A stretch of DNA of 64,000 nucleotides. Origin: Bdellovibrionota bacterium. GTDB lineage: Bacteria; Bdellovibrionota_C; UBA2361; JAAYZI01. Location: positions 160,001-224,000 of the forward strand of contig JBMNIF010000001.1 of the NCBI GenBank assembly GCA_050950765.1, written 5' to 3'. The notes beneath the pieces were generated by a model. The model made no database searches. It was not told the origin of the DNA and worked only from the letters and a program-made list of their open reading frames with translations. The translations under genes were made by a program, and so were the position numbers. Of the stretch, positions 11,624-57,125 are shown piece by piece; position 1 is the stretch's first letter; each line of letters opens with the position of its first letter.

Positions 11624-11710
11624 GCGTCACCTTTCAGTGACACTTGAACGGGCTGAAACTTGCAGAGCGAATCAACTAGATTTTTACGGAGGTAAAAAGT
11701 GCCACCCTTT
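11624..11710. repeat. Repeat array 1: one module A between degenerate cores (GGTGCCACCC orientation)
   Basis: ...TCAGTGACACTTGAACGGGCTG...TTTTTACGGAGGTAAAAAGTGCCACCC, closely matching 17283-17368. Confidence 0.85.
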
Positions 11711-11780
11711 AGCAGGGGTCTCCCTATTTTTATATAAAAATTAGGTATTAGATGGTTTTGGAGGGCTCTTCCTATTTTTT

Positions 11781-11993
11781 GATGAAACTAAACGCAAAAT
11801 AATTATTTCTTTATTTGGATTATTTAATAAGGAGATAAAATCGAGCGATGAAATAACAAAAGAGAATAAAATTCATATAGATACTTTTTATCAATATAGA
11901 AAAGAAATTTTGAATATTTTTAGTCAAGTATTTAACGTGAACTTTTCAAACGAAACGGTAAAAATGTTAAGACAGAAACAAAAAAATAAATAA
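11781..11993 (+). pseudogene. C-terminal remnant of a sigma70 region-4-like paralog, with no start codon at its 5' end
   Basis: Open frame DETKRKIIISLFGLFNKEIKSSDEITKENKIHIDTFYQYRKEILNIF... resembles the region-4-like repeats of the next gene. In-frame stop at 11742. Confidence 0.55.
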
Positions 11994-12186
11994 AAAAACA
12001 CGCTACAAAATCAATATATTATCCCACCCCCTTAACTAGCCTTAGGGTTTAAGCTTAAAATTCACGACTAAAATCTACAGCCTACAAGCTAATCTTTAAA
12101 AATAGATTTCTATAAAAAGCATTTAACGAGTATAATATTATATTTAAATGTAATTAAAACTAGCGATTGATTTAAAAGATAAATAA

Positions 12187-14055
12187 ATGCAAGTAGTAGG
12201 ACAACCGAGAGAACAACGACAGGTAAAAAAACGACAAGCAGAACAGAAAAACACTAAGCAAGGGGGAAATGAAGCTTCTTCTGTTCTTAGCGACTATTCG
12301 TTTTATCCTACCGATAATAGCCCTTGGGTCGATAATAGCCCTTCGATTGAATATTTTTATGCAACCCATGTTTTCCCATCTAACGACGAAACCACTGAAG
12401 CTATAAATGCTTTTCAAGAACAAGCTTATGAATTCAAAAAACAGTTTTTAAACAGCAAAGAGGTAATGTCTTATATCATATCACTAGTTAAAAAATATTT
12501 AACATTAAAAAGAAGTGAGCGTGACACACAATTTTTTTACGACAAAACGTTAAAAAGTTTTAAAAAACTATTACACGAAATCATACCTCCTTATTTTAAA
12601 ACATCTAATTCTTTTAATGATGATGATATAAAGATTTTAATAAAACATGCTACTAATAATTTTTATGCTTATATTATATCTAAGATACGAAAAGATATAA
12701 AACAAAAAGATATAGACGATTCAAATGAAACTAAATTAAAAACAGAAAAAGTAAAACTCTTAGAAAATATTATTAGTAGCTATCACAATTTAACTGAAAA
12801 AAGAAATTATATAGTAGATGCATATAGACAACTTATTAATTACGTCATTAATAAAGATTTTTATTATGAAGATAGAAATGCTACTCAATTCGCTGGGCTT
12901 TTAGGGCTTATTGAAGCCATCGACACTTATGATTCAAAAAAAGAAATCCCTTTTAAAAATTATGCTATAATTATGATTAAATTTTCTATCCAAAAGAATC
13001 TCAGAAGAACAAGAAGAGGAATAGTGGACCTATCTTTTGCAGATTTAGCAGGCGATGGCGATGATTCGGACTACCATGGTCAAGTCGCAGACCCTCGAGA
13101 CCCTTACTCTCAAAAAAACGTAGAAACCGCCCATAAATTATTAGGATATACTTACGGGAAAGCAAAATATATTATACAAATTTCGTGCGGATTTTACGCA
13201 AAAAACGAATATGAATATTATACGTCGCTTGGTGTTATGTCGTATCAACGTGCACACCAAATATATCAAATAACCATCGAAAAATTAAAATTTATATCAG
13301 AAGCCATAAACTATTCTCTTACGCAAGATGAAATCAAGGATATAAAAAATGAAATCAAAGAAAAACTACCAACGATACCAAACAATTATCGCCAAACCAT
13401 ATCGAAACACCTTGGTTTAGATGGAAATAGAGAATATTCAAGAGCTGAGCTATGTGAAGATTTCAATTGCGGAATTGAAACGACAGATACTTATATTTTT
13501 AATGCACTTAAAGGAACTTTTTCTAAAGACCCTAAAATGTTTAATAAAGCATTAAAATTTTCATTAACTATTGAAGATGAATTTATAAAAGAAAATATAT
13601 ATCCTTTGCCACATAATTTATACTCTATTTTAACAGAAGAAGAATCTAGGTTTTTAAAATGTAGATATGATTGGAAAAAAGGAATCTTTAAAGACCTAAA
13701 TCAAGTCGCAAATGATTTAAATACAGATATAACAGAACTTATCGAAATTGAAAGACGAGTTATAGAAAAATTAAAACAATATGAACCAGAAACATTCCCT
13801 AAAATTGGCGCAATATTTAAGGCTAATATTGAAAGCGGAAATATTCAAAGCTCTTTCGATAAAAACTCTCTTTTTATGTTATCTTCACTGCAATTTGAAA
13901 TTATAAATTTAAGGCACGGAATTACTACTTCGGAAAAGTTATCAAAAGAAGATATTATTGAAAAGCTATCTATCGACGCTCAAACGTACGACAAAGAATA
14001 TAAAAATGCGGTTTCTATCTTAAGAGAATTTAGACTAAATACAAACGAGAGTTAA
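12187..14055 (+). CDS. Divergent sigma70 (RpoD-like) family protein with four tandem region-4-like HTH domains
   Basis: Region 2-like AGLLGLIEAIDTYDSKKEIPFKNYAIIMIKFSI; region 3.2-like LSFADLAGDGDDSD; four repeats with region-4 spacing. Confidence 0.7.
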   Translation: MQVVGQPREQRQVKKRQAEQKNTKQGGNEASSVLSDYSFYPTDNSPWVDNSPSIEYFYATHVFPSNDETTEAINAFQEQAYEFKKQFLNSKEVMSYIISLVKKYLTLKRSERDTQFFYDKTLKSFKKLLHEIIPPYFKTSNSFNDDDIKILIKHATNNFYAYIISKIRKDIKQKDIDDSNETKLKTEKVKLLENIISSYHNLTEKRNYIVDAYRQLINYVINKDFYYEDRNATQFAGLLGLIEAIDTYDSKKEIPFKNYAIIMIKFSIQKNLRRTRRGIVDLSFADLAGDGDDSDYHGQVADPRDPYSQKNVETAHKLLGYTYGKAKYIIQISCGFYAKNEYEYYTSLGVMSYQRAHQIYQITIEKLKFISEAINYSLTQDEIKDIKNEIKEKLPTIPNNYRQTISKHLGLDGNREYSRAELCEDFNCGIETTDTYIFNALKGTFSKDPKMFNKALKFSLTIEDEFIKENIYPLPHNLYSILTEEESRFLKCRYDWKKGIFKDLNQVANDLNTDITELIEIERRVIEKLKQYEPETFPKIGAIFKANIESGNIQSSFDKNSLFMLSSLQFEIINLRHGITTSEKLSKEDIIEKLSIDAQTYDKEYKNAVSILREFRLNTNES

Positions 14056-14891
14056 CGAATTAACTTAACCACTTTCATAAAAAAATGATTAAACTAAAAA
14101 AATAAAGAAAAATGATACGTAGTAAAAAAGGCAAAATAGAACAACATGATGATTTTATCGAATGCTCATTTCCTCCCTCTTGCACAGCTATTAGAGGCGA
14201 TAATCTAAGCCCTGATAATAAGAAAACTATAGAAGCTATACGTTTATATAAGCAAGAAATGGAAAACTTTAAAGAAAAGTTTTTTAATAATGAAGAAGTT
14301 ACCCCTTATATCATCTCTCTAATTAGGGAGTATACATCTTTTAAAAAGTACAATATTTCAGATAATTTTACTAACCTTAGCGGACAAGATATTAAAGAAC
14401 TACAAGAGGTACTAGAAAGAATTTCTGATCCATCTTTTAAAACGTCACCTCTCTTAGAAAGTAGTGATATAAAAATACTAAGGCATAATGCAAAAGAATT
14501 TTTTTATTCAAATATTATGGGTAGAATAAAAAAAACTTTTGAAAATTTAAATAAAACTAATACGGAAAAAGAAAAATTAGAAGCACTATCTAGCATTCTT
14601 AATAGCTACAATCTTATAGCACAAATAAGAAACGATATAATAAAACCATACGAACGGATTATTAAAAATATAATCTTAAGACATATCATAAAACATGAGA
14701 TAAGCAGAAGCTGCGAAGACCTTTACTCTAGTGTTTTTTTAAAAGTTGTAGAAATAATTAGTGGTTATGACCACGAAAAAAACACATCTTTTTCAACTTA
14801 TCTTTGTGCTGGTTCAGCGTGAAATGGACATTTGAGGTGCTGAAAAAAGCTACTATAATAGCCTGAGTGATATTAACTAATGGGGTGAATA

Positions 14892-15197: not shown

Positions 15198-15232
15198 CGA
15201 AGCGTTGGGTTGAGCCACAAATACGAGATGAG

Positions 15233-16195
15233 GTGATAGATTTTGTACATGAATGGCAAGAGAAATCAGAAATGAAGCGGGAGATGTTTATAAAGAGGTT
15301 AGGGATAACACGGAGCAAGTACTATGCTTGGGAAAAACATTACGGTAAAGAGAACTTTCATAACGGGCTAATTCCGAGAGATTACTGGCTATTACCCAGT
15401 GAAAGGGAGGCTATTATTAAGTATTATTTAGAGCACTCAAGAGTAGGTTATCGAGCATTAACATACATGATGCTTGACGCAGATGTTGTGGCAGTATCCC
15501 CTGCGACGACCTATAGAGTATTGAAAAGTGCTGGCTTAATGCGTTGCTGGAATGGTTTAAAAAGCAAGAAAGGGACAGGATTTGAACAACCACTTAACCC
15601 GCATGAACATTGGCATACGGATGTTTCATATATCAATATTTGTGGCACATTTTACTATTTTATTGGAGTTTTGGATGGATGTAGTCGGTATTTAGTTGCA
15701 TGGGACATTAGAGAATCGATGAAAGAAATAGATATTGAAGTAGTATTACAAAAGGCTAGAGAAAGTTTTCCAGACGCAAGACCGCGAATTATTTCAGATA
15801 ACGGTTCAGCCTATATTTCAAAAGAGTTTAAGAATTTTATAAAGATATCTGGTATGACTCACGTCAAGACATCACCGTTCTATCCACAATCGAACGGTAA
15901 GATGGAGAGATTTAATGGGACATTAAAAGTAGAAGCGATACGACCTAACACTCCAGTATCACTTGATGATGCGAAAACTATAGTGAGTAAGTTTGTCGAA
16001 GAATATAACAATCAGCGGTTACATTGTGCGCTAGGTTATATAACACCAAATGATAGATTGAATAACAAGCAAGAGGAGATATTTAGAGCTCGAGACAGCA
16101 AATTGGAAGCTGCTAGAGCACATCGCAAGTTAGTAAGAGAGGGGTACCCCTCTCTTACTAACTACAACATTGAACAACAAGCTCAGGTGTGTTAA
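15233..16195 (+). CDS. IS3 transposase OrfB (rve/DDE), in -1 frame to OrfA and probably expressed as an OrfAB fusion
   Basis: WHTDVSY, SDNGSAY, PQSNGKMERFNGTLK. Confidence 0.95.
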   Translation: MIDFVHEWQEKSEMKREMFIKRLGITRSKYYAWEKHYGKENFHNGLIPRDYWLLPSEREAIIKYYLEHSRVGYRALTYMMLDADVVAVSPATTYRVLKSAGLMRCWNGLKSKKGTGFEQPLNPHEHWHTDVSYINICGTFYYFIGVLDGCSRYLVAWDIRESMKEIDIEVVLQKARESFPDARPRIISDNGSAYISKEFKNFIKISGMTHVKTSPFYPQSNGKMERFNGTLKVEAIRPNTPVSLDDAKTIVSKFVEEYNNQRLHCALGYITPNDRLNNKQEEIFRARDSKLEAARAHRKLVREGYPSLTNYNIEQQAQVC

Positions 16196-17232: not shown

Positions 17233-17447
17233 TCTGGTGCCACCCATTAGATTTGGCTAGATCTGCAGATTTTGCTGGCTTTGGTGCCACCCTTCACAGT
17301 GACACTTGAATGGGCTGCGATCGCAGAGCGAATCGGCTTGATTTTTACGGAGGTAAAAAGTGCCACCCTTTAGGGACGGCTGAACGGGCTGATACTGAAA
17401 AGCGAATCAGCTAGATTTTTACGAAGGTAAAAAGTGCCACCCTTCAG
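17233..17447. repeat. Repeat array 2 (4 cores, GGTGCCACCC orientation)
   Basis: Cores at 17236 and 17283, plus AGTGCCACCC variants at 17359 and 17433; two module A units. Confidence 0.92.
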
Positions 17448-18405: not shown

Positions 18406-19821
18406 TTAAATTTTAAGCTCTTGGCAGATTTCTTTAATGTATTTAAGCGTGGCACAATCTACCCATTTTTCTGGATTTTTTGCTGAGCGTTTTTTTACAC
18501 ACTTACTTAAAAAATGCATAACTTTTGAAAGAGAATGTCCTTTGCATTTTTGACTTTTATTGATTGGTTTTTTTATTCTTGTAAGCATAATACATGAAAT
18601 ATAATTTATAAATTCGGTTGCCATTAATCTATATGTGCCATGCACATTTTCTTCCGTTCGATTTATTATATTTTTGTATTTATAAAATAATGTCTCTATT
18701 TCCCATCTCTGTTTATATGCTTTATATATATCTCTTAAGTTTCCATCAAAATTACTCTCAAATACTATTAACCCAAAATTATCTTCCTTTTTTTTATAAA
18801 TCTCTTCATCAAATACTCCCTTTTCAATATTTCTACTAACATAACTTTTTTCTTGCTTAGCTTTTATTTCACTACTTTTATATGCATAGTAATATTTATT
18901 GTTATCTACTTTAACTTTATTACACCTTATACTGTCATTTTCGTATTTAAAAGATTCAGTAAATTTTCTATTAAGTTCATATTTAGTTATATCTTTTGAA
19001 TAATTCTTAATAGGTATCAAAAAATTAGTATTAAGTTTTTTTAATTCTTCTTTAATCTCCTTATCATTAAATCCCTTATCCATAATAATAAAACCGTTTT
19101 CAATCGTGTAAGTTTTAAGAAAATCTTTTAATGCCGTAAAATCAAGCATATTGCCAGCATACGGTGCGCAGGCTAAAGGTTCTTCGTTTTTAAGGTCATA
19201 AGCATAAATTAAATTTATATCCTTACAGCCTTTGATTCTTCCTTTCCTTGAGAATTCAGAATATATATTACTGTCTCCAGTGCTACTTTTAAGCATTCCA
19301 TCTATGACAATAGGATTATTAATATATTTACTTATCCTATAACTCATAAACTTCTCTATTAGAGTAGTTGTCTGACCTATCTTTTCTAAAAAAGCACTTA
19401 TGTTATTTCCAGATAAACCAAGCTTAGGAAATATTTCTGATATGTAATCCGTCTTGTATTCTAATAAGATTTCTCCATCTTTTAAATCTTCCTTAACCAC
19501 TCTTAACAAAGCAATGGTAAAGATTTTTTTAGCATCACTAGTATGATAAAATTTACATAAATCATAAAATATATCTTCGCACTCCTTATATATTAGCGCA
19601 GTTAATCCATATGACTTAAATTCAACTTCAAATTTAGGCTTTTCTATTGGAATATATTTACCATCAATTATTTTTCCTATTATCCCTAACTCTACGGGGT
19701 AAGGCTTGCCGTTTTTTCTGACGCTAGTTCTTTTGATAACATTGTATTCGTTTGGTGTTCTAGTTGCCTTTATTCTAGTATTTTTTGGTTTTAATTTTAA
19801 TATTTCCTCTGGTATTGGCAT
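18406..19821 (-). CDS. DDE transposase (IS4 superfamily, IS1634-like); likely start MPIPEE at 19821
   Basis: IVIDG, IMDKGF and YKQRWEIE (Y-2-R-3-E) motifs; RBS AAGGGG upstream of ATG 19821. The ORF-track extension runs into repeat DNA. Confidence 0.85.
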   Translation of the reverse strand: MPIPEEILKLKPKNTRIKATRTPNEYNVIKRTSVRKNGKPYPVELGIIGKIIDGKYIPIEKPKFEVEFKSYGLTALIYKECEDIFYDLCKFYHTSDAKKIFTIALLRVVKEDLKDGEILLEYKTDYISEIFPKLGLSGNNISAFLEKIGQTTTLIEKFMSYRISKYINNPIVIDGMLKSSTGDSNIYSEFSRKGRIKGCKDINLIYAYDLKNEEPLACAPYAGNMLDFTALKDFLKTYTIENGFIIMDKGFNDKEIKEELKKLNTNFLIPIKNYSKDITKYELNRKFTESFKYENDSIRCNKVKVDNNKYYYAYKSSEIKAKQEKSYVSRNIEKGVFDEEIYKKKEDNFGLIVFESNFDGNLRDIYKAYKQRWEIETLFYKYKNIINRTEENVHGTYRLMATEFINYISCIMLTRIKKPINKSQKCKGHSLSKVMHFLSKCVKKRSAKNPEKWVDCATLKYIKEICQELKI

Positions 19822-19888
19822 TTCAAATCCCCTTAAAAAACGAATAATGGCAGATCTGGCTGCAGGGTTTAGTCGGCTTTGTAGCTGG

Positions 19889-20338
19889 ATAATGGCAGAT
19901 CTGGTGCCACCCTTCAACTTTGCTGCTTTAAGCTGCGATCTGGTCGCTAGTATCTGGTGCCACCCATTAATTTGGCTGGATCTGATAGGTTTCGGCTAGC
20001 TTTAGTTTTGGTGCCACCCTCTAGGGATGGCGGACGGTGGGCTAGCGTCTGGTGCCACCCTCTAGGGACGACGGATCAGCTACGGGGGTTAAAAAACTGG
20101 TGCCACCCTTCCAGTTGGCTGGATTTGCAGATTTTGTGGCTTTGGCTTTGGTGCCACCCTTCAGCGTTGCCGCTTTAAGCTGAATATCTGGTGCCACCCT
20201 TCAACTTTGCCGCTTTAAGCTGCGACTGGCTTTGGTGCCACCCTCTAGGGATGGCGGACGGTGGGCTAGCGTCTGGTGCCACCCTCTAGGGACGGCGGAT
20301 CAGCTACGGGGGTTAAAAAACTGGTGCCACCCTTCCAG
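19889..20338. repeat. Repeat array 3 (10 cores, GGTGCCACCC orientation)
   Basis: Cores at 19903, 19956, 20010, 20051, 20099, 20150, 20190, 20234, 20275, 20323; internal duplication of about 20007-20113 at about 20231-20338. Confidence 0.95.
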
Positions 20339-22776: not shown

Positions 22777-23967
22777 TTATGTTGTTAGTATTTTGCTATC
22801 TATTCTGTCATATAAGCTGTTTAAGTCACGTTGAAAGATCTCAAAAGTGTAACGTTCTTCGGCAAGTTCGTGTGCGGCATTCCCTATTTTATGGCGCAGA
22901 TCTGGATCTGAAATTAATTTTTTTAATCCTTGCGCATAGCTATCGGGTGTGGGATCTGTGAGGATTGAAACGGTGTTGTTTAAAACCTGTGTGTGCGTTG
23001 GAAGATTTGTCGCAATGATTGCTTTACCGGAATGTAGATATGAATATATTTTCATGGGAGTGTTGTTCCCACGTAGTCTGGGAGAAGCTAAAATGTCAGC
23101 TTGAAGGAGGTAGCTTTTTAAACGATTGACAGCTCTACGTCCTGCAAGGTGTGCTCTATCTGAAAGATTTAATGCTGAAATCTTTGTTTTCCCTGCTGAG
23201 ATATGTTCATCACTACCACCAATAATAACGAGATGTGCTTTATCAAAGGAGTGCGCAATTTTTGCAAAAGCATCAATCAAAAGACCGCAGCCCTGATAAG
23301 GTTCAAGGTTCCCGACATATAGAATAACCAAAGAATCAGGGGGGATGTTTAATTCTTCTCTAAGCGTCTGCTGTGAAGTTGTTTGAGAATTATCTAATCC
23401 AAGGAGAGATATGTCTCGTAAGATCTGAGTGTCCTGTGAACCCTGATTGTAGGCAATGGCAGCGAGAGCATCGCAAACAGGAACTACTGCCATACTGTGT
23501 TTAATGGCTCGTCCTTCAAGAAAAGAGAGTAGCGGGAGAAAAGGACGAAAAATGCGCCATTTTTCAGTTAATTGTTGTGCTATTGATGAATCCATGTCGT
23601 AGATATACGGAATTTTCCAAAATACTTTGATTAGCATTGCAATGAAAACAGATTCTTCTACGGCATGAACTAAGTCATAAGGATTTTTTCTATTTTTCCA
23701 AACTAGCTTCAAAGCAGTAAATAAAAAAATGATATCGCAAAAGAGTTTTTTAACGGAGATACCAGGGGCGATATTGTTTAGAAAAAAAGGTGCTTTGATC
23801 CGTATATGATTAACATTCGGTATGCTTATGTCAGTCCCTTCGTGATATGTTAAAAGATCGATAGAGTCTTCTTTTCTTGTGGCAAGAACTTGAACTGCTA
23901 ATCTAACAGCTATCGGAGTGCCACGGTCTTGAAAAAACGGTTGTGGTGCTAAAAATAAAATACGCAT
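22777..23967 (-). CDS. Glycosyltransferase family 4; likely start MRILFLAPQPFF at 23967
   Basis: GT-B motifs LYVGNLEPYQG, ADILASPR, PMKIYSY. The ORF-track N-terminal extension runs through repeat DNA. Confidence 0.9.
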   Translation of the reverse strand: MRILFLAPQPFFQDRGTPIAVRLAVQVLATRKEDSIDLLTYHEGTDISIPNVNHIRIKAPFFLNNIAPGISVKKLFCDIIFLFTALKLVWKNRKNPYDLVHAVEESVFIAMLIKVFWKIPYIYDMDSSIAQQLTEKWRIFRPFLPLLSFLEGRAIKHSMAVVPVCDALAAIAYNQGSQDTQILRDISLLGLDNSQTTSQQTLREELNIPPDSLVILYVGNLEPYQGCGLLIDAFAKIAHSFDKAHLVIIGGSDEHISAGKTKISALNLSDRAHLAGRRAVNRLKSYLLQADILASPRLRGNNTPMKIYSYLHSGKAIIATNLPTHTQVLNNTVSILTDPTPDSYAQGLKKLISDPDLRHKIGNAAHELAEERYTFEIFQRDLNSLYDRIDSKILTT

Positions 23968-23997
23968 AGCATGGGATGATAAAACAAAAATTGTAAA

Positions 23998-24067
23998 AAG
24001 GACACCCGACTTGTCCCTGGTGCCACCCACCAGCGCTAAGCCCTTGTCACTGGTGCCACCCACCAGT
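23998..24067. repeat. Repeat array 4: two hairpin-form cores downstream of the RAYT gene
   Basis: CTGGTG-CCACC-CACCAG at 24017-24033 and ACTGGTG-CCACC-CACCAGT at 24049-24067, preceded by GGACACCC. Confidence 0.9.
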
Positions 24068-24278: not shown

Positions 24279-25247
24279 TCAGGTCGCCACCCCGCAAAGC
24301 CTACCTACAATAGGCATACTCGGACGAAATGCCCCATAAACAAACTTGGCTGAAATATCACCTTGCTTCCACTTCTTCCAAGCCTTTCTACACTCTTCAC
24401 AAAAAGCCTTATATTCTGCTATCGCCTTTATCCGTAACTCCTTAATCCAACAAATTAAATACGGCGTACGTGTCTTCTTCTTAGGTACATACGCAATATT
24501 TATCGATTGCTGCTGCACTTTACGCATCCCCATAAAATGCCCCTTCCTTTCAAGTGCAATCTCTTCTTCCCTTTTTGAAATCTCTGTCATTATTGTTTTA
24601 AAGATCTCTTCAGACGTAAGGTTTTTTGATTCTTCAAAACAATTCTTCCAAGCATCAGGGGTAATCTTAAGCTCATGACAAGTGTGCGGAAACATATTAA
24701 GCATTTTTAATAAAATAGCATCGCTTATTTTATGAAGTCTCTGCGGTAACTTACGTAAATTAGTAGAAGAGGTATACTTACCCTGCACTGTTAAAGAACC
24801 TGATTTATACATTCTAAAACTACTACACCCTTCCCAATCAGCAGCGTGTGCAACGAGTCCTGCTTTTACAGGATTTATATAAATATAGACTATCTTATCG
24901 ATAACATCATTATGAGTTACCAAACGTTGCTCCTTAAAACGTCCATCCCAAACGTTTCTCCTATATTGCGGTGTTAGTTTCTTAATAGCACGTGCAACTG
25001 CACTTTCCATCTCTCCCATAAATGCAGAGATGTGCTTTCCTTCACCAACTAATATCATGTGAAAGTGGTTACTCATCCAATTAAAATGAGCAATTCTAAC
25101 ACGATGGTGCTCTTGGCAACGTGCCATAATCCCTAACAGGATCCATTTCATAAAAAGGCGTGCTAGAAATGGCAAGCCAGATAATGTTCTATTGGTGACA
25201 TGTACCACCATTTTATTAGGATTTCTCCTATCTCTACGATTTCTCAT
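24279..25247 (-). CDS. REP-associated-type tyrosine transposase (RAYT / TnpA-REP, Y1 HUH endonuclease) with C-terminal extension
   Basis: HVTNR, MSNHFH (HUH), VWDGRF, YIYINPVKAGLV...W..SS; no tnpB beside it; flanked by short palindromic repeats. Confidence 0.88.
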   Translation of the reverse strand: MRNRRDRRNPNKMVVHVTNRTLSGLPFLARLFMKWILLGIMARCQEHHRVRIAHFNWMSNHFHMILVGEGKHISAFMGEMESAVARAIKKLTPQYRRNVWDGRFKEQRLVTHNDVIDKIVYIYINPVKAGLVAHAADWEGCSSFRMYKSGSLTVQGKYTSSTNLRKLPQRLHKISDAILLKMLNMFPHTCHELKITPDAWKNCFEESKNLTSEEIFKTIMTEISKREEEIALERKGHFMGMRKVQQQSINIAYVPKKKTRTPYLICWIKELRIKAIAEYKAFCEECRKAWKKWKQGDISAKFVYGAFRPSMPIVGRLCGVAT

Positions 25248-25396: not shown

Positions 25397-25872
25397 TGGT
25401 GCCACCCTTTAGTGCGAGGATGGTGTTAGAAAAAGAAAAGAAGGGTGGCACCAGTTTTACCCCCGTGAAGACCTAGCTGATCCGTTTTACAGTTCCAGCC
25501 CGTCCGATTGTCCCTGAAGGGTGGCACCAGTGACAAGCCTGCAACAATTGCTGATTTAAGGGCAAAAAGAAGGGTGGCACCAGTTTTTTAACCCCCGTGA
25601 AGACCTAGCTGATCCGTTTTGCAGTCCCAGCCCGTTCAGTTGTCCCTGAAGGGTGGCACCAGTGACAAGCCTGCAATAATTGCTGATTTAAGGGCAAAAA
25701 GAAGGGTGGCACCAGTTTTTTAACCCCCGTGAAGACCTAGCTGACTCTGTTTTCAGTTACAGCCCGTTCGGTTGTCCCTGAAGGGTGGCACCAGTTTTTA
25801 CCCCCGTGAAGAGCTAGCTGATCCGTTTTGCAGTCCCAGCCCGTCCGGTCGTCCCTGAAGGGTGGCACCAGT
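25397..25872. repeat. Repeat array 5: inverted core pair followed by an A-B'-A-B'-A-A tandem array
   Basis: GGTGCCACCC at 25398, then GGGTGGCACC at 25443, 25519, 25572, 25651, 25704, 25783, 25860. Confidence 0.96.
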
Positions 25873-27154: not shown

Positions 27155-27175
27155 AAAAGCAGGTGCCACCCATCA
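27155..27175. repeat. Isolated core; left copy of a 21-bp direct repeat
   Basis: AAAAGCAGGTGCCACCCATCA; matches 31871-31891 at 20 of 21 positions. Confidence 0.9.
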
Positions 27176-28315
27176 AATTTGATCTATAAAGGAGCAAATG
27201 GTTTCAACATCTTGGTTGTCTGTATAATAATGCGGTGAAAATCTAAACACAAACTTACTTCCATTATCTGGGAAAAAAATCGGACAATCCCAATCACATA
27301 CTAAAGAAACAACAATACTTTCTGTTTCCAATGCTGTTTTTATTTCCACTTCTTTTGAAGGGTCTTTTAAGTAAAATGACGCAATTCCAGACCTTGATTT
27401 TTCTTTACCGAATAGATAAATATTCTGATTCCTCATAATTGCATCTCGTATTTTGTTGGCCTTTCGTTCAATTTCTAGCGAGGCTTTCTCCACTCCATAT
27501 TCTAAATATTCATTGATTGCATTTCCTAATCCTAATAATGAAGCAATACTTTTTTCCCAAAGTTCAAACTGTTTTGCATCATCACGAACTTTCACTCCTT
27601 TAACATCGCCATTACTATCAAAAATTAGATCAGCAGATGCTAAATCAATCTGTGGTGTATAAATATTTGCACCATCCTTGACATATAGAATTCCTGTCCC
27701 TCGTGGTCCGCGTAGCCATTTTCTCCCAGCTGCAACATATGCATCACAGTTTATTTCTTTCATATTCGCGACTATTTGCCCAACAGCTTGGCAACCATCA
27801 ACAATATAGGTAGCGCCATATTTTCTAGCCATTTTCCCCATTTCTACCACTGGATTAACGATTGATCCTTGTGCTGCAACATGGCTAACAGCTAAAATTG
27901 TTCCTCCTCCTCGCAATGCACTTTCTAAGTTTTCTAATGAAAAATCCCCATTCGGCTTGCACGGAATCACATTCACTGAGCAGCCAGTTTTTTTTGCAAT
28001 ATCAAATATTGTTAATAAGTTTGTACCATACTCACTTGACAACGTAACAATCTTATCGCATGCACTTATTTTTATTCCATACATGATTAGATTCCAGCCA
28101 CGACTTGCGCTATCAACAAATGCTATTTCACTTTTATTATCTGCATTAAGCATTTTGGCTGATAATTCGTAAAATTTGTTTACATCTTCCTGCTTATCAA
28201 TTGCAGCTTTATATGCGCCAATCTTCATTTCAAGTTTCATGTGGTCCACAACAGTATTAAATGTTCCATTACTCATTAATCCTGCTCCGGCATTATCAAA
28301 ATACAGTGTTTTCAT
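27173..28315 (-). CDS. PLP-dependent aminotransferase class V / cysteine desulfurase-like enzyme
   Basis: YFDNAGAG, DGCQAVGQ, AGRKWLRGPRGTG (PLP lysine), RFSPHYY. Confidence 0.9.
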   Translation of the reverse strand: MKTLYFDNAGAGLMSNGTFNTVVDHMKLEMKIGAYKAAIDKQEDVNKFYELSAKMLNADNKSEIAFVDSASRGWNLIMYGIKISACDKIVTLSSEYGTNLLTIFDIAKKTGCSVNVIPCKPNGDFSLENLESALRGGGTILAVSHVAAQGSIVNPVVEMGKMARKYGATYIVDGCQAVGQIVANMKEINCDAYVAAGRKWLRGPRGTGILYVKDGANIYTPQIDLASADLIFDSNGDVKGVKVRDDAKQFELWEKSIASLLGLGNAINEYLEYGVEKASLEIERKANKIRDAIMRNQNIYLFGKEKSRSGIASFYLKDPSKEVEIKTALETESIVVSLVCDWDCPIFFPDNGSKFVFRFSPHYYTDNQDVETICSFIDQI

Positions 28316-28326
28316 TATTTATCCTC

Positions 28327-28545
28327 TCAACTTTCTGCAACAAATTTTGCAATAGCAACCCCCAGTTCTCTCAAATTCCAAACTGTCGGATTTGAATCAT
28401 TATCGGTTATCATGCCTCGCAATTCTAAATCCCTCACAGTGTTACGCAGCTCAATCTCTGGCACAGCAACCATTTCCGAAATCTTTATCGCCGAAAGAGA
28501 GTCGTTGTTCTTATATATTGCGGATAGAATTTGAAGTTGTATAAA
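28327..28545 (-). pseudogene. 3' remnant of a gene (winged-helix-like) truncated by the IS1634-type element
   Basis: Open frame FIQLQILSAIYKNNDSLSAIKISEMVAVPEIELRNTVRDLELRGMI...WNLRELGVAIAKFVAES* starts at the IS end and stops just before the aminotransferase RBS. Confidence 0.6.
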
Positions 28546-29348
28546 GTCCTAAATTCCCGTTTTTTTATAGTCTACACCTTAGTATTTAATATTTTATCGA
28601 CAAAAATCTTCTGGTCAATTTCTAATGCTTCTAAAATATCTTTTTGTTTTTTTGTTAATGGCTGTAGTAGCATGCTCAGATTTTCATTATCTATGCGTCT
28701 TATCATTTTAAGCGTTTCTAAAACTCTCTGAATGGTTTTTTCTACTTTTTTGTTATTATTATTTATAGTTCTTTGTAGGTCTGACCACATAATTAAGCTA
28801 AGAAAGGAAACGAAGCTTTTGCCGTCAGTAGTTTTTTCATTATGTGTTAGCATACGGTCATTATCCAATTCATTTTTTAAATTATCGAAAGCTTTCTCAA
28901 TAAAGTCTCGTCGTGAATAGATATGAAGTGCTTCTTGTGGTGTCATTGTTGAGTGGTTACTCAAAAAAGCAAAAACTCCTAGCATAGATAAGATATCGGT
29001 AATTTTTTCATGATCTCTTTCAAAACTTTCTAACTGCACTTCTTTCTTAGTTTTTATTTTGTAGTATTTAGAGTAGCGACTCATACTCATAGGCTTTTTC
29101 ATTTCTTTTAGTTCATCTTCTAATCTGTCAATATGAGAGTAAAGAGTGCTCTCTTCCTCAGATGCACTTTTTGTATTTAAGTAAACGTAGAGAGAAAATT
29201 TTTCTCCATTTATCACAATATCTTTTCTTACCCCATAACAATTTGTCCCAGATATGTGATTCCTAGAAGAGCGAAGAGTAACAGATACTTCCCTCATAGT
29301 GTTCTGCCTCTGATGGAAATGGACTTTTGTCATGCCACAAAACCCTAG

Positions 29349-30311
29349 TTAACACACCTGAGCTTGTTGTTCAATGTTGTAGTTAGTAAGAGAGGGGTAC
29401 CCCTCTCTTACTAACTTGCGATGTGCTCTAGCAGCTTCCAATTTGCTGTCTCGAGCTCTAAATATCTCCTCTTGCTTGTTATTCAATCTATCATTTGGTG
29501 TTATATAACCTAGCGCACAATGTAACCGCTGATTGTTATATTCTTCGACAAACTTACTCACTATAGTTTTCGCATCATCAAGTGATACTGGAGTGTTAGG
29601 TCGTATCGCTTCTACTTTTAATGTCCCATTAAATCTCTCCATCTTACCGTTCGATTGTGGATAGAACGGTGATGTCTTGACGTGAGTCATACCAGATATC
29701 TTTATAAAATTCTTAAACTCTTTTGAAATATAGGCTGAACCGTTATCTGAAATAATTCGCGGTCTTGCGTCTGGAAAACTTTCTCTAGCCTTTTGTAATA
29801 CTACTTCAATATCTATTTCTTTCATCGATTCTCTAATGTCCCATGCAACTAAATACCGACTACATCCATCCAAAACTCCAATAAAATAGTAAAATGTGCC
29901 ACAAATATTGATATATGAAACATCCGTATGCCAATGTTCATGCGGGTTAAGTGGTTGTTCAAATCCTGTCCCTTTCTTGCTTTTTAAACCATTCCAGCAA
30001 CGCATTAAGCCAGCACTTTTCAATACTCTATAGGTCGTCGCAGGGGATACTGCCACAACATCTGCGTCAAGCATCATGTATGTTAATGCTCGATAACCTA
30101 CTCTTGAGTGCTCTAAATAATACTTAATAATAGCCTCCCTTTCACTGGGTAATAGCCAGTAATCTCTCGGAATTAGCCCGTTATGAAAGTTCTCTTTACC
30201 GTAATGTTTTTCCCAAGCATAGTACTTGCTCCGTGTTATCCCTAACCTCTTTATAAACATCTCCCGCTTCATTTCTGATTTCTCTTGCCATTCATGTACA
30301 AAATCTATCAC
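29349..30311 (-). CDS. IS3 transposase OrfB
   Basis: Protein identical to 15233-16195. Confidence 0.95.
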   Translation of the reverse strand: MIDFVHEWQEKSEMKREMFIKRLGITRSKYYAWEKHYGKENFHNGLIPRDYWLLPSEREAIIKYYLEHSRVGYRALTYMMLDADVVAVSPATTYRVLKSAGLMRCWNGLKSKKGTGFEQPLNPHEHWHTDVSYINICGTFYYFIGVLDGCSRYLVAWDIRESMKEIDIEVVLQKARESFPDARPRIISDNGSAYISKEFKNFIKISGMTHVKTSPFYPQSNGKMERFNGTLKVEAIRPNTPVSLDDAKTIVSKFVEEYNNQRLHCALGYITPNDRLNNKQEEIFRARDSKLEAARAHRKLVREGYPSLTNYNIEQQAQVC

Positions 30312-30346
30312 CTCATCTCGTATTTGTGGCTCAACCCAACGCTTCG

Positions 30347-30652
30347 TTAAAGCTCCCCAAGCTTTTTTTTTAAATCTATATGAAGCCCCAAAAGCTCCGC
30401 TAGCGCAGAATCCTTCTTCGTTAGCTTCTTCTCCAAAATATCTATCCGTTCAGCTTGCTTCTTTTCTTCTTTCCTACCATTTTTATTCCGCTCAAAAATT
30501 TGGATAGCTCCCTCAAATAATAGCTTCTGCCATTCATAAAATGTACTAATGTGTACGCCGTATTTATCGCATAAACTCGATAACGGCTTATTTCCTAATA
30601 AATGCTCCTTCAGTATCTTAACCTTATCTTCTGCACTAAAATGTTTTCCCAT
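30347..30652 (-). CDS. IS3 transposase OrfA
   Basis: Protein identical to 14892-15197. Confidence 0.92.
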   Translation of the reverse strand: MGKHFSAEDKVKILKEHLLGNKPLSSLCDKYGVHISTFYEWQKLLFEGAIQIFERNKNGRKEEKKQAERIDILEKKLTKKDSALAELLGLHIDLKKKLGEL

Positions 30653-31870
30653 TATTCACCCCATTAGTTAATATCACTCAGGCTATTATAGTAGCTTTTT
30701 TCAGCACCTCAAATGTCCATTTCACGCTGAACCAGCACAATAGTATCGTTGTAATTTTTCTGAGATTTAGGAACAGCTACGAGAAATTCTATTTGCTCTT
30801 TTTTTATATATTCTAAATTTTCTTTTGTAATAAAACCTCTATCCAGAACATAAAATATATCATCAATACCTAAGTTTTTAGAGTATTCCATCATTGTTGT
30901 AAGAAAAACTTTATCAACAACACTTCCACTGTAAAGAAAAAAACTTATTGGTAAATTGCTATCGGTAGCGTATAAAAGCCCGACATTTAGTTGTGGTAAA
31001 TATTCTTTGTCTCTATTGTATCCATTCTCGGCAAGTGGCAAGTCTGCATAAGTAGAAAGGCTCGTAACATCATAAGCTACAGTCTCATTGTTTTTCATAG
31101 CATGGTTTTTCCACACAGAAAAAAACTTCATTTGATCTTGTTTGGTAATCGATGAAAAAAGCTCACTTGTCTTTTGCGAGGATAGAGATATGTTTTTAGG
31201 GGTAAGAGTATTTTGCAAAAAATTATCTATATTCATCATTACATTGCCTTCGCAAGCCATGTATAACGCAGTATAAAAGATATCTTCGTATTTATCGGGA
31301 AAGATTGTTTTTAAGCATTTTAATAACCCTATAGCCTTAGCTCTCATTTTTAATGCGACTACGTGACCTGCGTCCCAAACAAAGCGAGAAGAAGCTAGAT
31401 CAATAACGTCAGATGGCATTGGATAATATTTTTTAAAGTTCTCATTAGGAATCATTCTTCCTTGTCTATCAGGGTCTATCTTTCCCACAATCACTTCATC
31501 ACAAGTAGGTGTGCCGTTCTTATTACGACGATGACCAAGTACGTGATACACATACTTTACGTTTCCTTTGCTATCTTTTTTATACGAAATCTTTTTTTCT
31601 GGAATTGGAATTGAAATATTTATTAAAGCCATTTTGTCTCCTATTTTTTACTGTCCCGTAGACTACGGAAACATGTCTACAGAACAAAAAATGTCAATGG
31701 TTTTTTAAAACTTTCATAAAAACTTAATTAAATAAATATGTTGGAGGAAATATAATATTAGAAAATCTAAATATGAAATTAAATTATTGATATGGACTAC
31801 ATAAAAAACGGGAATTTAGGTCGTTATTGTGGACGAAAAATTTTTTAGGTGCTTCAAGTGCGAAGTCGGG

Positions 31871-31891
31871 AAAAGTAGGTGCCACCCATCA
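31871..31891. repeat. Isolated core; right copy of the 21-bp direct repeat
   Basis: AAAAGTAGGTGCCACCCATCA. Confidence 0.9.
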
Positions 31892-34953: not shown

Positions 34954-34999
34954 TTTTAATTTAGTAGAGTAATCGCTCGCACCTTTAGGGGCGCTGCCT

Positions 35000-35238
35000 T
35001 TTGCTAATATATTGATATTATTAAGTTGCTGTAAACTTAAAGTTTGAATGCCTTAATTGTAAAGCGTTCAGCGCTGAAGGGCGGCACTTTTTACCTTCGT
35101 AAAAATCTAGCTAATTCGCTTTGCAGTTGCACCCCTTTTAACTGTTCTTAGAGGGTGGTGTTTCTACCTCCGTTAAAATCTAACCAATTCGTTTTTTAGT
35201 TGTAGCCCCTCAATCGTCATTGGTGGGTGGCACCAGAG
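35000..35238. repeat. Repeat array 6 (degenerate module C plus two module A units, GGGTGGCACC orientation)
   Basis: Cores at 35079 (variant), 35153 (variant) and 35225. Confidence 0.85.
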
Positions 35239-36561: not shown

Positions 36562-36722
36562 TGAAGGGTGGCACTTTTTACCTTCGTAAAAATCTAGCTA
36601 ATTCGCTTTGCAGTTGCACCCCTTTTAACTGTTCTTAGAGGGTGGTGTTTCTACCTTCGTTAAAATCTAGCTAATTCGCTTTGCAGTTGCAGCCCGCTCA
36701 ATTGTCACTGAAGGGTGGCGTT
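36562..36722. repeat. Repeat array 7 (two module A units)
   Basis: 36562-36669 matches 35075-35182 with 2 mismatches in 108 bp. Confidence 0.88.
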
Positions 36723-36725
36723 AAG

Positions 36726-37145
36726 TTACCAGTTATGTTGCCATGAAATAGTGATGGAAAGATTGTGAGTTTTTGAATCTATTGTAACTATATTTATGGC
36801 GTTGCTGGAGTCTACTTTGTCTATTGTAAAAGAAGTTGGATGCGGATCTACTTCGTAGATAGCAAGGCGATAGAAATTTTTTGTACTTTCATCAAGGACG
36901 TTTTTTTCTTGAAGCTTAGCAAATAAACTTTTGTCGAGTAAGGTAGATGAAGGTGTCTCTGTTTTCGCATCACCTTTCATTACTACTGATGCAAGGAGAG
37001 AGTCCGCTTTCTGTTCTGATTTTTTAACGGTCAGTATATTGTCAAAATTAAGTGCATCCGAAGTAGCAAAGGTATCTGTGACAAATAACAGTAAAACCAT
37101 TAATGTAAAAAAAGTCGACGTGAACAGTATGCTTAAACACCTCAT
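36726..37145 (-). CDS. Hypothetical exported protein
   Basis: Signal-peptide-like MRCLSILFTSTFFTLMVLLLFVTDTFA from ATG 37145; C-terminal aromatic residue. Confidence 0.55.
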   Translation of the reverse strand: MRCLSILFTSTFFTLMVLLLFVTDTFATSDALNFDNILTVKKSEQKADSLLASVVMKGDAKTETPSSTLLDKSLFAKLQEKNVLDESTKNFYRLAIYEVDPHPTSFTIDKVDSSNAINIVTIDSKTHNLSITISWQHNW

Positions 37146-37403: not shown

Positions 37404-37889
37404 TAGAGGGTGGCATTTTTAACCCCCGTCAAAATCTAGCTGATTCGTTTTGCAGTCGCAGCCTGTTCAATCGTCCCTGAAGGGTGGCACCAGTGACAGC
37501 CAGCTACAAAGAAGGGTGGCACCAGATCTGCCGAATTTTGGATTTTTGCTAATGTCTTGATATTATTAGATGTTATGATTTTGAAGTTTGGATGTCCTAT
37601 TTACGAAGCGTCTGCAACGCTGAAGGGTGGCACCAAATTTTATCCCGTCTTAGTGAAGGGTGGCACCAGTGACAGCCAGCTACAAAGAAGGGTGGCACCA
37701 GATCTGTCGAATTTTGGATTTTTGCTAATGTCTTGATATTATTAGATGTTATGATTTTGAAGTTTGGATGTCCTATTTGCAAAGCGTCTGCAACGCTGAA
37801 GGGTGGCACCAAATTTTTGACCTTCGTGAAAACTTAACCAATTCGCTTTTCAATATCAGCCCGCTCTGTTGTCCTTAGAAGGTGGCAAA
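37404..37889. repeat. Repeat array 8 (A-B-C-x-B-C-A)
   Basis: Cores at 37408 (variant), 37482, 37514, 37625, 37658, 37690, 37801, 37880 (variant); internal duplication with 176-bp period. Confidence 0.95.
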
Positions 37890-37901
37890 TTTCTCAAAAA
37901 A

Positions 37902-42256: not shown

Positions 42257-43011
42257 TTTAGGATACCCACTTTTTACTGGGTTTTTAAGCTTTTGCTAAT
42301 GTCTTAATATTATTAACTATTGCAATTTTAGAGTTTGGATGTCCTATTTACAAAGCGTCTGCAACGCTGAAGGGTGGCACCAGATTTTTAACCCCCGTGA
42401 AGATCTAGCTGATTCGTTTTGCAGTTGCAGCCCGTTCAATCGTCACTGAAGGGTGGCACCAGAACTGCAGCCGCCAAGATCTGACAAATCTGCTTATACT
42501 GAAGGGTGGCACCAGTTTTTTAACCCCCGTGAAGATCTAGCTAATCTGTTATGCAGTTGCAGCCCGCCCGATCGTCCCAGAAGGGTGGCACCAAAACTGC
42601 CGAATTCTAACTTCTGCTAACATCTTGATATTATTAGCAGCGCTGGTGGGTGGCACCAGTGATAGCTAGCCATAAAGAAGGGTGGCACCAAAACTGCCCG
42701 ATTTTGGATTTTTGTTAACGTCTTGATATTATTAGCAGCGCTGGTGGGTGGCACCAACGACAGGCAGCTACAAAGAAGGGTGGCACCAGATCTGCCGAAT
42801 TTTAAGGTTTTGTTAATGTCTTGATATTATTAGATGTTGTAATTTTGAAGTTCGGGTGTCCTATTTGCAGCGCTGAAGGGTGGCACCAGTGATAGCTAGC
42901 TACAAAGAAGGGTGGCACCAGTTTTTTGACCTCCGTAAAGATCTAGCCGATCCGGTTTTGTAGTTGCAGCCCGTTCGGTCGTCCCCCAGATTTCTGAAGG
43001 GTGGCACCAGA
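42257..43011. repeat. Repeat array 9 (11 cores)
   Basis: GGGTGGCACC at 42372, 42451, 42504, 42583, 42648, 42680, 42746, 42778, 42878, 42910, 42999. Confidence 0.96.
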
Positions 43012-52100: not shown

Positions 52101-52129
52101 TTGACGAAGAGGAAAAACGTGGGTAAAAT
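52101..52129 (+). promoter_or_regulatory. Putative sigma70 promoter for rho (about 250-nt leader)
   Basis: TTGACG-17 nt-TAAAAT. Confidence 0.6.
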
Positions 52130-53642: not shown

Positions 53643-53659
53643 AACTTGAGATCTTAGTT

Positions 53660-55054: not shown

Positions 55055-55091
55055 TCATACATAACCTAGTGAGATATTTTAGGAGGTTCTT

Positions 55092-56339
55092 GTGAGTAGT
55101 GTAAGGGAGGCGGCGATTGCAGCAAAAAAAGTTTCTGGAGACTTAGCAGCATTCTCCACAGAGAAAAAAAATCGCATACTGTTAAAAATCGCAGATTATT
55201 TAAGAGATAATAAACCGTATATTCTTAGTGCTAATGCAGAAGATATTCATCTTGGTGAGAAAAACGGATTAAATCAAACTTTAATTGATCGCTTAAGCCT
55301 TACTGAAGAACGTATTGAAGATATCGCTAAAGGAGTTGAGCAGGTCGCCTCTCTTCCAGATCCGATCGGTGTAGTGCTCTCAGAGTGGGATACTGCAGCG
55401 GGGTTACATATTCAAAAGGTGCGGGTGCCTTTCGGGGTTTTAGGAATAATCTATGAAGCGCGTCCAAATGTTACGATTGATGCTGCTGTGCTAAGCATAA
55501 AAAGCGGAAATGTTGCTTTGTTGCGAGGAAGTTCTTCTGCGCTTAATTCAAATCGTGCTTTAACAAAAATTGTGCAGGATGCTTTAGAAGTTGAAGGGGT
55601 AGCACGTGAAAGTGTACAACTACTTGATGCTGCTGGGTACGAAGCTACACAAGAGATGATGCAGCTTAGAGGGTTAATAGATGTTTTAATTCCAAGAGGC
55701 GGAGCTTCTTTAATTAAATCGGTTGTAGAGATGGCTGCTGTTCCTGTGATTGAAACTGGTGCTGGAAATTGCCATGTTTATATTCATAAAGATGGTGATG
55801 TAGAGATGGCTAAGAAGATAGTGCTTAATGCAAAAATACAACGCCCCTCTGTTTGTAATGCTCTCGAAACTTTATTGGTTCATCAAGAATGGGCTAAAAA
55901 ATATTTAAAAGATATAGTTGAGGCGTTACAAGAAAAAAGGGTGGAGTGTAGAGGGTGTGAAGAGGCTTGTCAGATCGTGAAGTCTTTAAAAGCAGCTACT
56001 ACTCAAGATTGGGAGACGGAGTTCCTTGATTATATTCTTGCAATAAAAATAGTTGATTCTGAAGAGGCAGCTATCGAGCATATCAACCATTATGGCACGA
56101 AGCATTCAGAAGCAATTATTACCCAATCTGAAGAAGTAGCAGAAAAGTTTATGCAGTACGTTGATGCGGCAGCTGTTTATCAAAATGCTTCAACACGCTT
56201 TACAGACGGATTCGTTTTCGGATTTGGCGCAGAGATAGGGATTAGTACGCAAAAATTGCACGCTAGAGGTCCTATGGGTTTGTGCGAAATGACATCATAT
56301 AAATATAAAATCTTTGGAAAAGGAGAGGTTCGATCTTAA
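55092..56339 (+). CDS. proA: Gamma-glutamyl phosphate reductase
   Basis: IYEARPNVT, IPRGG, GNCHVY, RPSVCNALE, NASTRFTDG, GISTQKLHARGPMGL. Confidence 0.98.
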   Translation: MSSVREAAIAAKKVSGDLAAFSTEKKNRILLKIADYLRDNKPYILSANAEDIHLGEKNGLNQTLIDRLSLTEERIEDIAKGVEQVASLPDPIGVVLSEWDTAAGLHIQKVRVPFGVLGIIYEARPNVTIDAAVLSIKSGNVALLRGSSSALNSNRALTKIVQDALEVEGVARESVQLLDAAGYEATQEMMQLRGLIDVLIPRGGASLIKSVVEMAAVPVIETGAGNCHVYIHKDGDVEMAKKIVLNAKIQRPSVCNALETLLVHQEWAKKYLKDIVEALQEKRVECRGCEEACQIVKSLKAATTQDWETEFLDYILAIKIVDSEEAAIEHINHYGTKHSEAIITQSEEVAEKFMQYVDAAAVYQNASTRFTDGFVFGFGAEIGISTQKLHARGPMGLCEMTSYKYKIFGKGEVRS

Positions 56340-56365
56340 GAGTCTCCTTAGTTTTCTTTCACCTA

Positions 56366-57125
56366 ACTTTTTACCTCCGTAGAGATCTAGCCGAACCGTT
56401 CTGCAAGTTGTAGCCCGTTCGGTCGTTACTGGTGGGTGGCACCAGATCCACTAAGCTATCGCTGCCAATTAGGACACCCGCTTTTAGCTAAAGGGTGGCA
56501 CCAACGACAGCAGCTACAAAGAAGGGTGGCACCAAAACTGCCAGATTCTAGGCTTTTGTTAACGTCTTGATATTATTAGATGTTGTGATTTTGAAGTTTG
56601 GGTGTCCTATTTGCAAAGCGTCTGCGTCCCTGAAGGGTGGCACCAGATCCAAGCCAAACCAAAGCCCCATTAGCCAGCTACAAAGAAGGGTGGCACCAAA
56701 TTTTTAAACAGCCCGTCCGGTCGTTATGGTGGGTGGTACCAGTGACAGCCAGCTACAAAGAAGGGTGGCACCAAATTTTTAACCTCCAGTTTTTTGACCC
56801 CCGTTCTATCGTCCCTCAAGGGTGGCAACCAGTGACAGCCCCGATAAAGAAGGGTGGCACCAAAACTCTGAAGGGTGGCACCAAAACTACCTGATTTTGG
56901 GTTTTTGTTAACGTCTTGATATTATTAGATGTTGTGATTCTGAAGTTTGGGAGAAAACTCTAGTGGGTGGCACCAAATTTTTGACCTCCGTGAAGATCTA
57001 GCCGATCCCGTCTTGCAGTTACAGCCCGTCCGGTCGTTACTGGTGGGTGGCACCAGATCCTCCGTCAACATCTAGCCGATTCGGTTTTTAGTTGTAGCCC
57101 GTCTGATTGTTCTTAGAGGGTGGAG
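56366..57125. repeat. Repeat array 10 (10 exact and 3 variant cores) between convergent proA and lptB
   Basis: Cores at 56434, 56493, 56524, 56635, 56688, 56731 (variant), 56763, 56820 (variant), 56852, 56873, 56965, 57045, 57118 (variant). Confidence 0.96.

Follow-up and report, generated by a model that had tools for sequence, protein, structure and literature searches.

The genome of a Bdellovibrionota bacterium contains intergenic arrays in which a ten-base core alternates with reused spacers, and the question raised by this locus is what builds and spreads them. The DNA analyzed here (the window) comprises 64,000 nt, positions 160,001–224,000 of contig JBMNIF010000001.1 in assembly GCA_050950765.1, and coordinates are those of the window unless a contig is named; the whole genome, labelled G000 (with contigs C1 and C2 cited below), amounts to 2.64 Mb in 5 contigs and is 94% complete. 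An original prediction, made from the letters of the window, described the arrays as a non-coding cassette system assembled from a small spacer library, and it missed both a transposase gene and the role of the core as the end of its element. The most probable answer, with a probability of about 0.68, is that the arrays are head-to-tail end motifs of a six-copy Y1-HUH transposon, whose transposase likely nicks the core at GGGTGGCA^CCA (the caret marks the bond) and rejoins strands between cores. The duplication, deletion, and movement of the pieces between cores would follow from such nicking and rejoining.

The core and the transposase gene it frames

The core is the 10-mer GGGTGGCACC (reverse complement GGTGCCACCC), a polar near-palindrome of the form GGTG-G-CACC that is embedded in the extended motif (TGAA/TGGT/AGAA)-GGGTGGCACC-A. 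Both strands of the window together hold 52 exact copies, in line with the roughly 50 first predicted, and the genome holds 967. This number is far above chance, since the commonest one-mismatch neighbour of the core has 48 copies and all others at most 17, and since the 11-mer form occurs 943 times in the genome versus 0 for the reversed control. Clusters with at least two exact cores number 105, the arrays are almost all head-to-tail, and same-orientation core runs span 65.9 kb, or 2.5% of the genome. Ten of the 967 cores lie inside ATG-started open reading frames (ORFs) of at least 120 aa and 957 outside them, which agrees with the predicted absence from genuine genes; the window cores under ORFs 18406–19917 and 22777–24063 fall in N-terminal extensions with TTG or GTG starts that are apparently spurious. 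No replication-strand bias of the arrays was found (55 versus 43, p 0.27).

That the repeats were created by the assembly itself has a negligible probability. Near-identical DNA was present in 20 runs from 14 studies, chiefly digester and bioreactor samples, and contigs from four of the studies, one of which may be the source sample, agreed with the unique flanks in every letter as far as the cores and contained module sequence; the same scars, described below, are also present in other assemblies. What speaks for an artefact is that the contigs of these four studies stop at cores, none spanning an array, and that no independent contig bridges the module order. The repeats themselves are real; no contig of the same species was found among the matches listed (119 metagenome and 92 genome loci).

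The transposase gene lies at 24279..25247 on the minus strand and encodes a 322-aa Y1-HUH tyrosine transposase that matches PF01797, with H61-F-H63 in an NHFH motif and Y121 in YIYINP. These three residues (H61, H63, and Y121) are invariant in 13 homologs, the distance from HUH to Tyr is 58–60 aa, and GCSS stands at 140–143. The scores against NF047646 (67 bits, cut-off 80) and NF033573 (18 bits, cut-off 55) stay below the thresholds. The structural model (pLDDT 83) finds its best match in TnpA-REP (4er8, E 2e-6), and the C-terminal half is helical in this model, with no Pfam match to Bac_DnaA_C, HTH_23, or HTH_28 and, in an atlas search, just unnamed clusters under 0.9 and no named match.

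Six copies of the gene at 99% identity, plus a fragment, occupy different loci of the genome. A core stands 150 nt upstream of each copy and another about 217 nt downstream, and an inverted core 35–36 nt beyond the upstream one starts an outward-facing array, with outward-facing inverted cores flanking the gene in 6/6 copies in addition to the inner core. For the copy in the window, the right end (24019..24061, minus strand) has two direct outward-facing cores, of which the first follows the stop codon at a distance of 217 nt, a position common to 6/6 copies, and the nick would fall between 24054 and 24053 (minus strand), judging from the A^CC duplications described below. The inner core (25398..25407, minus strand), which precedes the gene by 150 nt, and the core at 25443 make up a 55-bp inverted pair (stem z −3.1). 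At 25443 begins the left-end array of seven outward-facing cores (25443..25869, plus strand). Its modules A-B'-A-B'-A-A and periods 76-53-79-53-79-77 are as originally described, and the module order of the left array varies among the six 99%-identical copies. Genome-wide, 37 of the 105 arrays lie within 20 kb of a transposase copy, a region that makes up 8.4% of the genome, and the ring of 2–20 kb around the copies, 7.3% of the genome, contains 25 of 93 arrays (p 9e-9).

Tandem units of gene 3' end and trailer, each ending at a core, were observed at C2:8885-9722 and C2:891372-891980, and a tRNA-like gene, recognized by eye, sits between two left-array cores of one transposase copy (C2 near 893500-893750). 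The six copies share polymorphic sites in a mosaic manner (e.g., gene positions 390/393, 402, 777, and 822), hinting at inter-copy recombination.

The transposase family is present in 74 of the 91 genomes of the order. Among 92 distinct homologous loci, 34 are bounded by outward inverted repeats whose last bases are [AT][ACG]CA (CCA in 26), and no target duplication on both sides was seen in related two-ended elements. In one relative, G025 (L013, L031), a Y1 element of 1.3 kb has the core 10-mer as its simple pair of inverted repeats. Among the matches listed, the 10-mer frames longer, subclass 2.3-like Y1 genes in Planctomycetes (L345, L390) and also occurs there in head-to-tail arrays with chimeric spacers. 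Head-to-tail core arrays were further observed, again among the matches listed, in Planctomycetota (L348, L349, L352, L373), in Pseudobacteriovorax (L407), and in metagenomes (L235, L248, L275), and L242 holds 49 cores with an 18-nt period. Elements of 86–173 bp that resemble miniature inverted-repeat transposable elements, with the core as inverted ends (core-TGTTTT ... AAAACA-core), were observed in G019, G063, and G073 (L026, L028, L029, L033, L034, L127, L139), several with an A^CC duplication at one end only.

A duplication footprint at one bond of the core

The new part of the finding is a footprint of short duplications at the A^CC bond of the core, which likely marks where the transposase cuts and rejoins DNA. 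Near the cores of the genome, 52 distinct perfect tandem duplications were found, of which 19 start exactly at GGGTGGCA^CC, 5 one base earlier, and 1 two bases earlier; chance microhomology would give these starts 1–2 nt upstream. A duplication starting at A^CC adjoins 23 of the 967 cores; of the 6497 CC sites elsewhere in these regions, 5 have one (p 2e-16). At the cores, the period is 8–14 nt in 22 of the 23. Six of 24 such duplications lie within 2 kb of a transposase gene (p 0.002), and one 248-bp perfect duplication also starts at this bond. A restart at the candidate nick is visible in the window at 19844..19904 (minus strand), where 16 nt from the CC of a core recur 45 nt on and appear as a repeated RSAII in the ORF translation. 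Truncated cores point to the same bond and to its mirror position: spacer heads are preceded by exactly CC in 66 cases, by one C in 32, and by ACC in 9, and spacer tails are followed by exactly GGG in 23, by GG in 4, and by GGGT in 0.

Six relatives that have the core, examined with the loci of G000 itself left out and cores too near a locus end skipped, showed a duplication at 17 of their 122 cores, compared with 12 of 915 CC sites serving as controls (G019 13/51, G040 2/13, G025 1/16, G073 1/10), and their histogram has 20 rows at A^CC versus at most 4 at any other offset. The site counts for other phyla and metagenomes rest on the 119 metagenome and 92 genome loci among the matches listed, with L337 and L419, copies of G019 DNA, left out (L337 only in one count); there, 29/299 and 33/367 can be phased to the A^CC site. 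Where duplications are centred on the core, the junctions overlap by −1 to 2 nt in 3/4 cases here, 2/2 in relatives, and 34/48 in other taxa among the matches listed (the 18-nt simple arrays L241 and L242 were left out of this count only, and whole-spacer repeats, whose phase is undefined, were skipped in it). Since the overlaps are this short, the core-centred duplications are not driven by homology.

It is quite improbable that another enzyme cuts the core, be it the second Y1 protein of the genome or a host nuclease or recombinase. The second Y1 gene exists (C1 418.2–419.2 kb, a 371-aa frame with YVDLNP, subclass 2.3-like), the Planctomycetes genes framed by the 10-mer among the matches listed are also subclass 2.3-like, and G019 is without the 322-aa family. 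However, the second gene is framed by a different motif, GGGTGTCC, which has 221 copies genome-wide and no duplication peak, whereas the core frames all six copies of the 322-aa gene. Three tyrosine recombinases are encoded in the genome, none of them an integron integrase, and no IS110 was found over the cut-off. The second Y1 gene was observed to sit amid GGGTGTCC clusters (G000 C1:408900-424100, L209), and the motif is found inside C-type modules of the core arrays, captured in both orientations.

Spacer modules and their probable exchange

Splitting the genome at the core gave 890 spacers, of which 781 are distinct. Clustering at 70% identity yielded 216 clusters, the ten largest holding 44% of the spacers; at 65% identity, the ten largest hold 50%, and family A has 192 members across 76 arrays. 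Many spacers are chimeric, with head and tail from different families. The modules recur, but the library is open and, genome-wide, not the small one that had been proposed. An origin of the modules in the leader, gene, or trailer of the present element was rejected for most of them, with 8 hits among the 890 spacers.

Positions 6–27 nt apart within spacers share 0.25–0.60 bits of mutual information, and the value is 0.19 between the head of a spacer and its own tail, while values across the core are 0.056–0.085 versus 0.046–0.054 in within-array shuffles. Since spacers are tightly linked internally and linkage all but vanishes across the core, the modules appear largely to move as units and to exchange at the core. 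Twin spacers (95% identical, in different arrays) are without a twin neighbour on either side in 123 of 131 pairs, the pairs being non-independent. The lost linkage and the twins uphold the predicted recombination of modules as units at the core, but the chimeras and a part of the breakpoints do not: near-exact inter-array repeats have right ends at or within 5 nt of a core in 140 of 332 cases and at least 16 nt inside a spacer in 104 of 332, where the null gives 83% core-proximal and 4% deep in the spacer.

These deep breakpoints favour a rival explanation, in which the core derives from transposon ends but the arrays are at present shaped by host processes only, namely replication slippage, unequal crossing-over, and gene conversion between similar modules. 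The same explanation would account for nearest 95% twins that lie in the same array in 242 cases and in another in 61 (800 spacers of at least 30 nt), for blocks of 130–430 nt repeated within arrays, and for the duplications of G019, which has no detectable Y1 gene. A core of 10–11 bp is, however, short for RecA, and slippage predicts neither a single exact start without microhomology, nor blunt junctions, nor clustering near the gene, which leaves host processes alone an unlikely explanation.

Several points weigh against cutting and rejoining by the transposase. Both cleavage and mobility are read from scars in the sequence alone. The tightest control of the footprint, other A^CCA sites, has duplications at 2/278, so that the excess is not significant (p 0.09). 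Among truncated-core tails, the 26 cut off after just one G form a second excess that blurs the mirror-strand site, and the mirror-strand duplication peak is absent in relatives. Two relatives, G063 (0/18 cores) and G068 (0/14), have no duplication, and G019, the source of 13 of the 17 relatives' events, yielded no Y1 gene with three queries (92% complete, 20 contigs). The differing ends of 34 homologous elements have enriched duplication starts (50 at 110 sites versus 41 at 341 controls, offsets −4 to +3) with no sharp peak, and the core 10-mer has no sharp peak in other phyla and metagenomes (5/302 and 2/362 sites, among the matches listed). Moreover, the twin spacers could stem from gene conversion instead of movement, and insertion of the gene into array-rich regions could account for the clustering around it.

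No cassette function of the arrays was found, and sampled modules fold no better than shuffles (z −0.4 to +1.0 in five module-containing folds). A structured-RNA reading of the modules has no support for the latter reason; folding was seen just in the CTGGT-core variant and the inner inverted pair (z about −3), and there is no Rfam match within the window. A CRISPR array, with its constant repeat and unique spacers of uniform length, was rejected in view of periods of 19–261 nt and reused spacers, and an integron cassette array was rejected since the best score against TIGR02249 for IntI is 50 bits versus a cut-off of 265 in this 94% complete genome.

Host domestication of the arrays as structural or regulatory cassettes, such as nucleoid sites bound by integration host factor (IHF) or 3'-end RNA elements, which the predicted cassette system implies, has a low probability as well. 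For the IHF consensus, 120 of 395 matches genome-wide fall in spacers, which make up less than 2.5% of the genome, and 109 matches sit 25–26 nt after a core. Furthermore, 75 of 100 arrays point, by the direction of their cores, at the end of a gene (p 6e-7), and convergent gaps are overrepresented (38% versus 17%). The IHF match is, however, inherited with one module family, and the position biases fit mere tolerance equally well. The folding results count against domestication too, as does the limitation of the expansion to one of the 91 genomes of the order (943 copies of the 11-mer, next highest 37); the gene is multi-copy like an insertion sequence (IS), and most degenerate arrays resemble decay. 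Most likely, the arrays are selfish by-products that are tolerated mainly behind gene ends.

All ten arrays that had been predicted are present in the window, together with two solo cores. A degenerate remnant at 11618..11711 (minus strand) retains a single A module and, at 11698, a core with one mismatch, and the array at 17236..17442 (minus strand) has 2 exact and 2 one-mismatch cores. The array at 19903..20332 (minus strand), with 10 cores and short spacers, abuts a DDE_Tnp_1 transposase gene (ORF 18406–19917) that starts right at the array edge. Beyond the transposase copy, the solo core at 27162..27171 (minus strand) has the flank TGAT-core-T, which provides the stop codon of an aminotransferase ORF, and the solo core at 31878..31887 (minus strand) has the same flank and is direct to it; the two solo cores (27162–31887) bracket the aminotransferase and an IS block, and the element ends of G040 share the TGAT-core flank. 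Two degenerate arrays follow on the plus strand, at 34996..35235 (C, A, A; one exact core) and 36566..36727 (A, A; no exact core). The array at 37408..37892 (plus strand) shows the predicted order A-B-C-x-B-C-A with periods 32-111-33-32-111 from 37482, and its C modules contain an IHF-consensus match and the GGGTGTCC-like end motif of the second Y1 element. Two mixed arrays on the plus strand complete the set: the one at 42258..43008 has 11 cores and lies upstream of rpsB, and the one at 56356..57122 has 10 exact and 2 variant cores, with cores truncated after GGG in its tail.

Other features were also observed in the window. The rve-integrase (IS3-like) ORFs 15233–16195 and 29349–30311 encode identical 320-aa products, and the second interrupts a DDE_Tnp_1 gene (28572–31632); contigs from three other runs connect 29295 to 30740 without the 1444-bp insert. 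Between 12187 and 17232 lie three orphan ORFs, two of which have weak Sigma70_r2 matches; an identical block of about 75 aa is common to the 622-aa and 347-aa products, with an IS3-like element between them.

Relation to known systems and a proposed mechanism

Published systems are compared here as the excerpts of the cited papers describe them. The present system is a real, extreme variant within TIRtron/TIRYT (Di Nocera 2013, PMC3733652), a group equivalent to TnpA-Y1 subclass 2.1 (Quentin 2018, PMC6006769) and to group 1 of the REP-associated tyrosine transposases (Bertels 2017, PMC5581495), and it is subclass 2.1-like, apart from lacking the GGGGWSAS motif and having a C-terminal half without a recognised domain. 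Subclass 2.1 is delimited by a class-2 Y---NP, an HUH-to-Tyr distance of about 58–67 aa without the insertion of subclass 2.3, and an SS motif (PMC6006769). The Y1-HUH gene described here has NHFH, Y---NP, and SS motifs with the class-2 signature, a distance of 58–60 aa, and GCSS after the core domain. Like TIRYT genes, it is framed by terminal inverted repeats (TIRs) without a GTAG foot (6/6 copies; in G025 as a simple pair), its repeats have further copies elsewhere, and the gene copies are duplicated.

The differences from TIRYT begin with scale, 967 copies and about 105 head-to-tail mosaic arrays here contrasting with the "moderately abundant" singles, dimers, and clusters of PMC3733652. 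The GGGGWSAS motif of most TIRtrons is absent from the core GGGTGGCACC, although other motif-less TIRs are included in PMC3733652; the C-terminal half has no Pfam HTH, an extra inner core is present, and a candidate cut site can be named, where the excerpts of PMC3733652 give none. Di Nocera 2013 described moderately abundant TIR families and, in those excerpts, left cleavage untested (PMC3733652), and the excerpts of Quentin 2018 report no REP-like repeats near subclass 2.1 genes (PMC6006769). No cleavage site or mechanism for subclass 2.1 was found in the literature searched, whose coverage leaves out most subscription journals.

Hundreds of intergenic mosaic repeats together with a Y1 enzyme, a bias towards convergent gaps, and a linker with an IHF consensus recall the repetitive extragenic palindromes (REPs) and bacterial interspersed mosaic elements (BIMEs) of E. 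coli and their TnpA-REP (PMC3333891, PMC8266576). BIMEs, however, are inverted pairs of 20–40-nt GTAG hairpins that are cut at scattered C|T sites, and their gene is single-copy and non-mobile (PMC3333891, PMC8266576), whereas the repeats here are direct, 10–11 bp long, and mostly hairpin-less, the probable cut falls at one fixed site within the repeat, and the gene is present at different loci in six near-identical copies. Lacking the GTAG hairpin, being direct in orientation, and having a multi-copy gene, the arrays are not REPs or BIMEs. The dRS3 and RS repeats of Neisseria, known as NIMEs (Bentley 2007, PMC1797815), are similar in their long intergenic arrays, short palindromic core, and 50–150-bp spacers of many families, and the dRS3 core was hypothesised to be a recombinase site; it is 20 bp long and symmetric, and the excerpts report NIMEs from Neisseria only and name no enzyme (PMC1797815), while the core here is polar and tied to a Y1 gene. 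Elements of IS200/IS605 (IS608, ISDra2) share the Y1-HUH fold, several near-identical copies, and the lack of both-sided target duplication seen in the related two-ended elements. They differ in a TnpA of about 150 aa (Y---Q), subterminal hairpins with guide sequences, and no TIRs, in contrast to the 322-aa, class-2 Y---NP enzyme and the inverted ends described here. The core or related palindromes were not found as bacterial repeats among the literature matches listed, and the excerpted supplement text of the compared papers has one partial core match, a subclass 2.7 repeat with the foot GGTGCCA.

HUH enzymes cut one strand, hold its 5' end as a 5'-phosphotyrosine, and release a free 3'-OH (PMC3333891). 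By analogy, a nick at the core would attach the enzyme to CCA and expose a 3'-OH at GGCA, and the joining of that 3'-OH to the CCA end of another cut core would exchange modules without a scar. Were the 3'-OH first lengthened by host polymerase over 8–14 nt, roughly one turn of the helix, the rejoined strand would contain a short duplication or a chimeric spacer that begins at CC. The near-palindromic core (GGTG-G-CACC) could also permit a mirror nick on the other strand, which may account for cores truncated after GGG and for blunt core-centred duplications. Duplications of an 8–15-nt head, an upstream piece, and a core may need cuts in both strands, the weakest step of the proposal, and ordinary host recombination likely adds the longer block duplications. 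The BIME amplification model of Ton-Hoang 2012 (Fig. 7B, PMC3333891) likewise consists of a nick, 3'-OH extension, and rejoining, and it predicts products like the duplications and CC-headed chimeras found here.

A broader reading is possible, though doubtful: TIRYT-type Y1 enzymes may be site-specific nicking recombinases for a short near-palindrome, which use neither hairpin nor guide, cut both strands 5 nt apart round TGGCA, prime local synthesis, and join any core to any other. Such an enzyme would be a one-gene cassette shuffler building head-to-tail mosaic arrays across phyla, one that ran away in this genome, its cargo being its own gene and ends captured from another element.

Among Y1-HUH groups, subclass 2.1 ranks second in size, and Quentin 2018 found it in about 15% of the sampled species (PMC6006769); for an enzyme of this subclass the scars give a base-exact candidate cut site and substrate. 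They are also genomic products of the type predicted by the nick-extend-rejoin model of BIME amplification, a long-open question. If strands are joined at one fixed 11-bp site without a hairpin, the transposase would represent a compact new type of site-specific strand-transfer enzyme.

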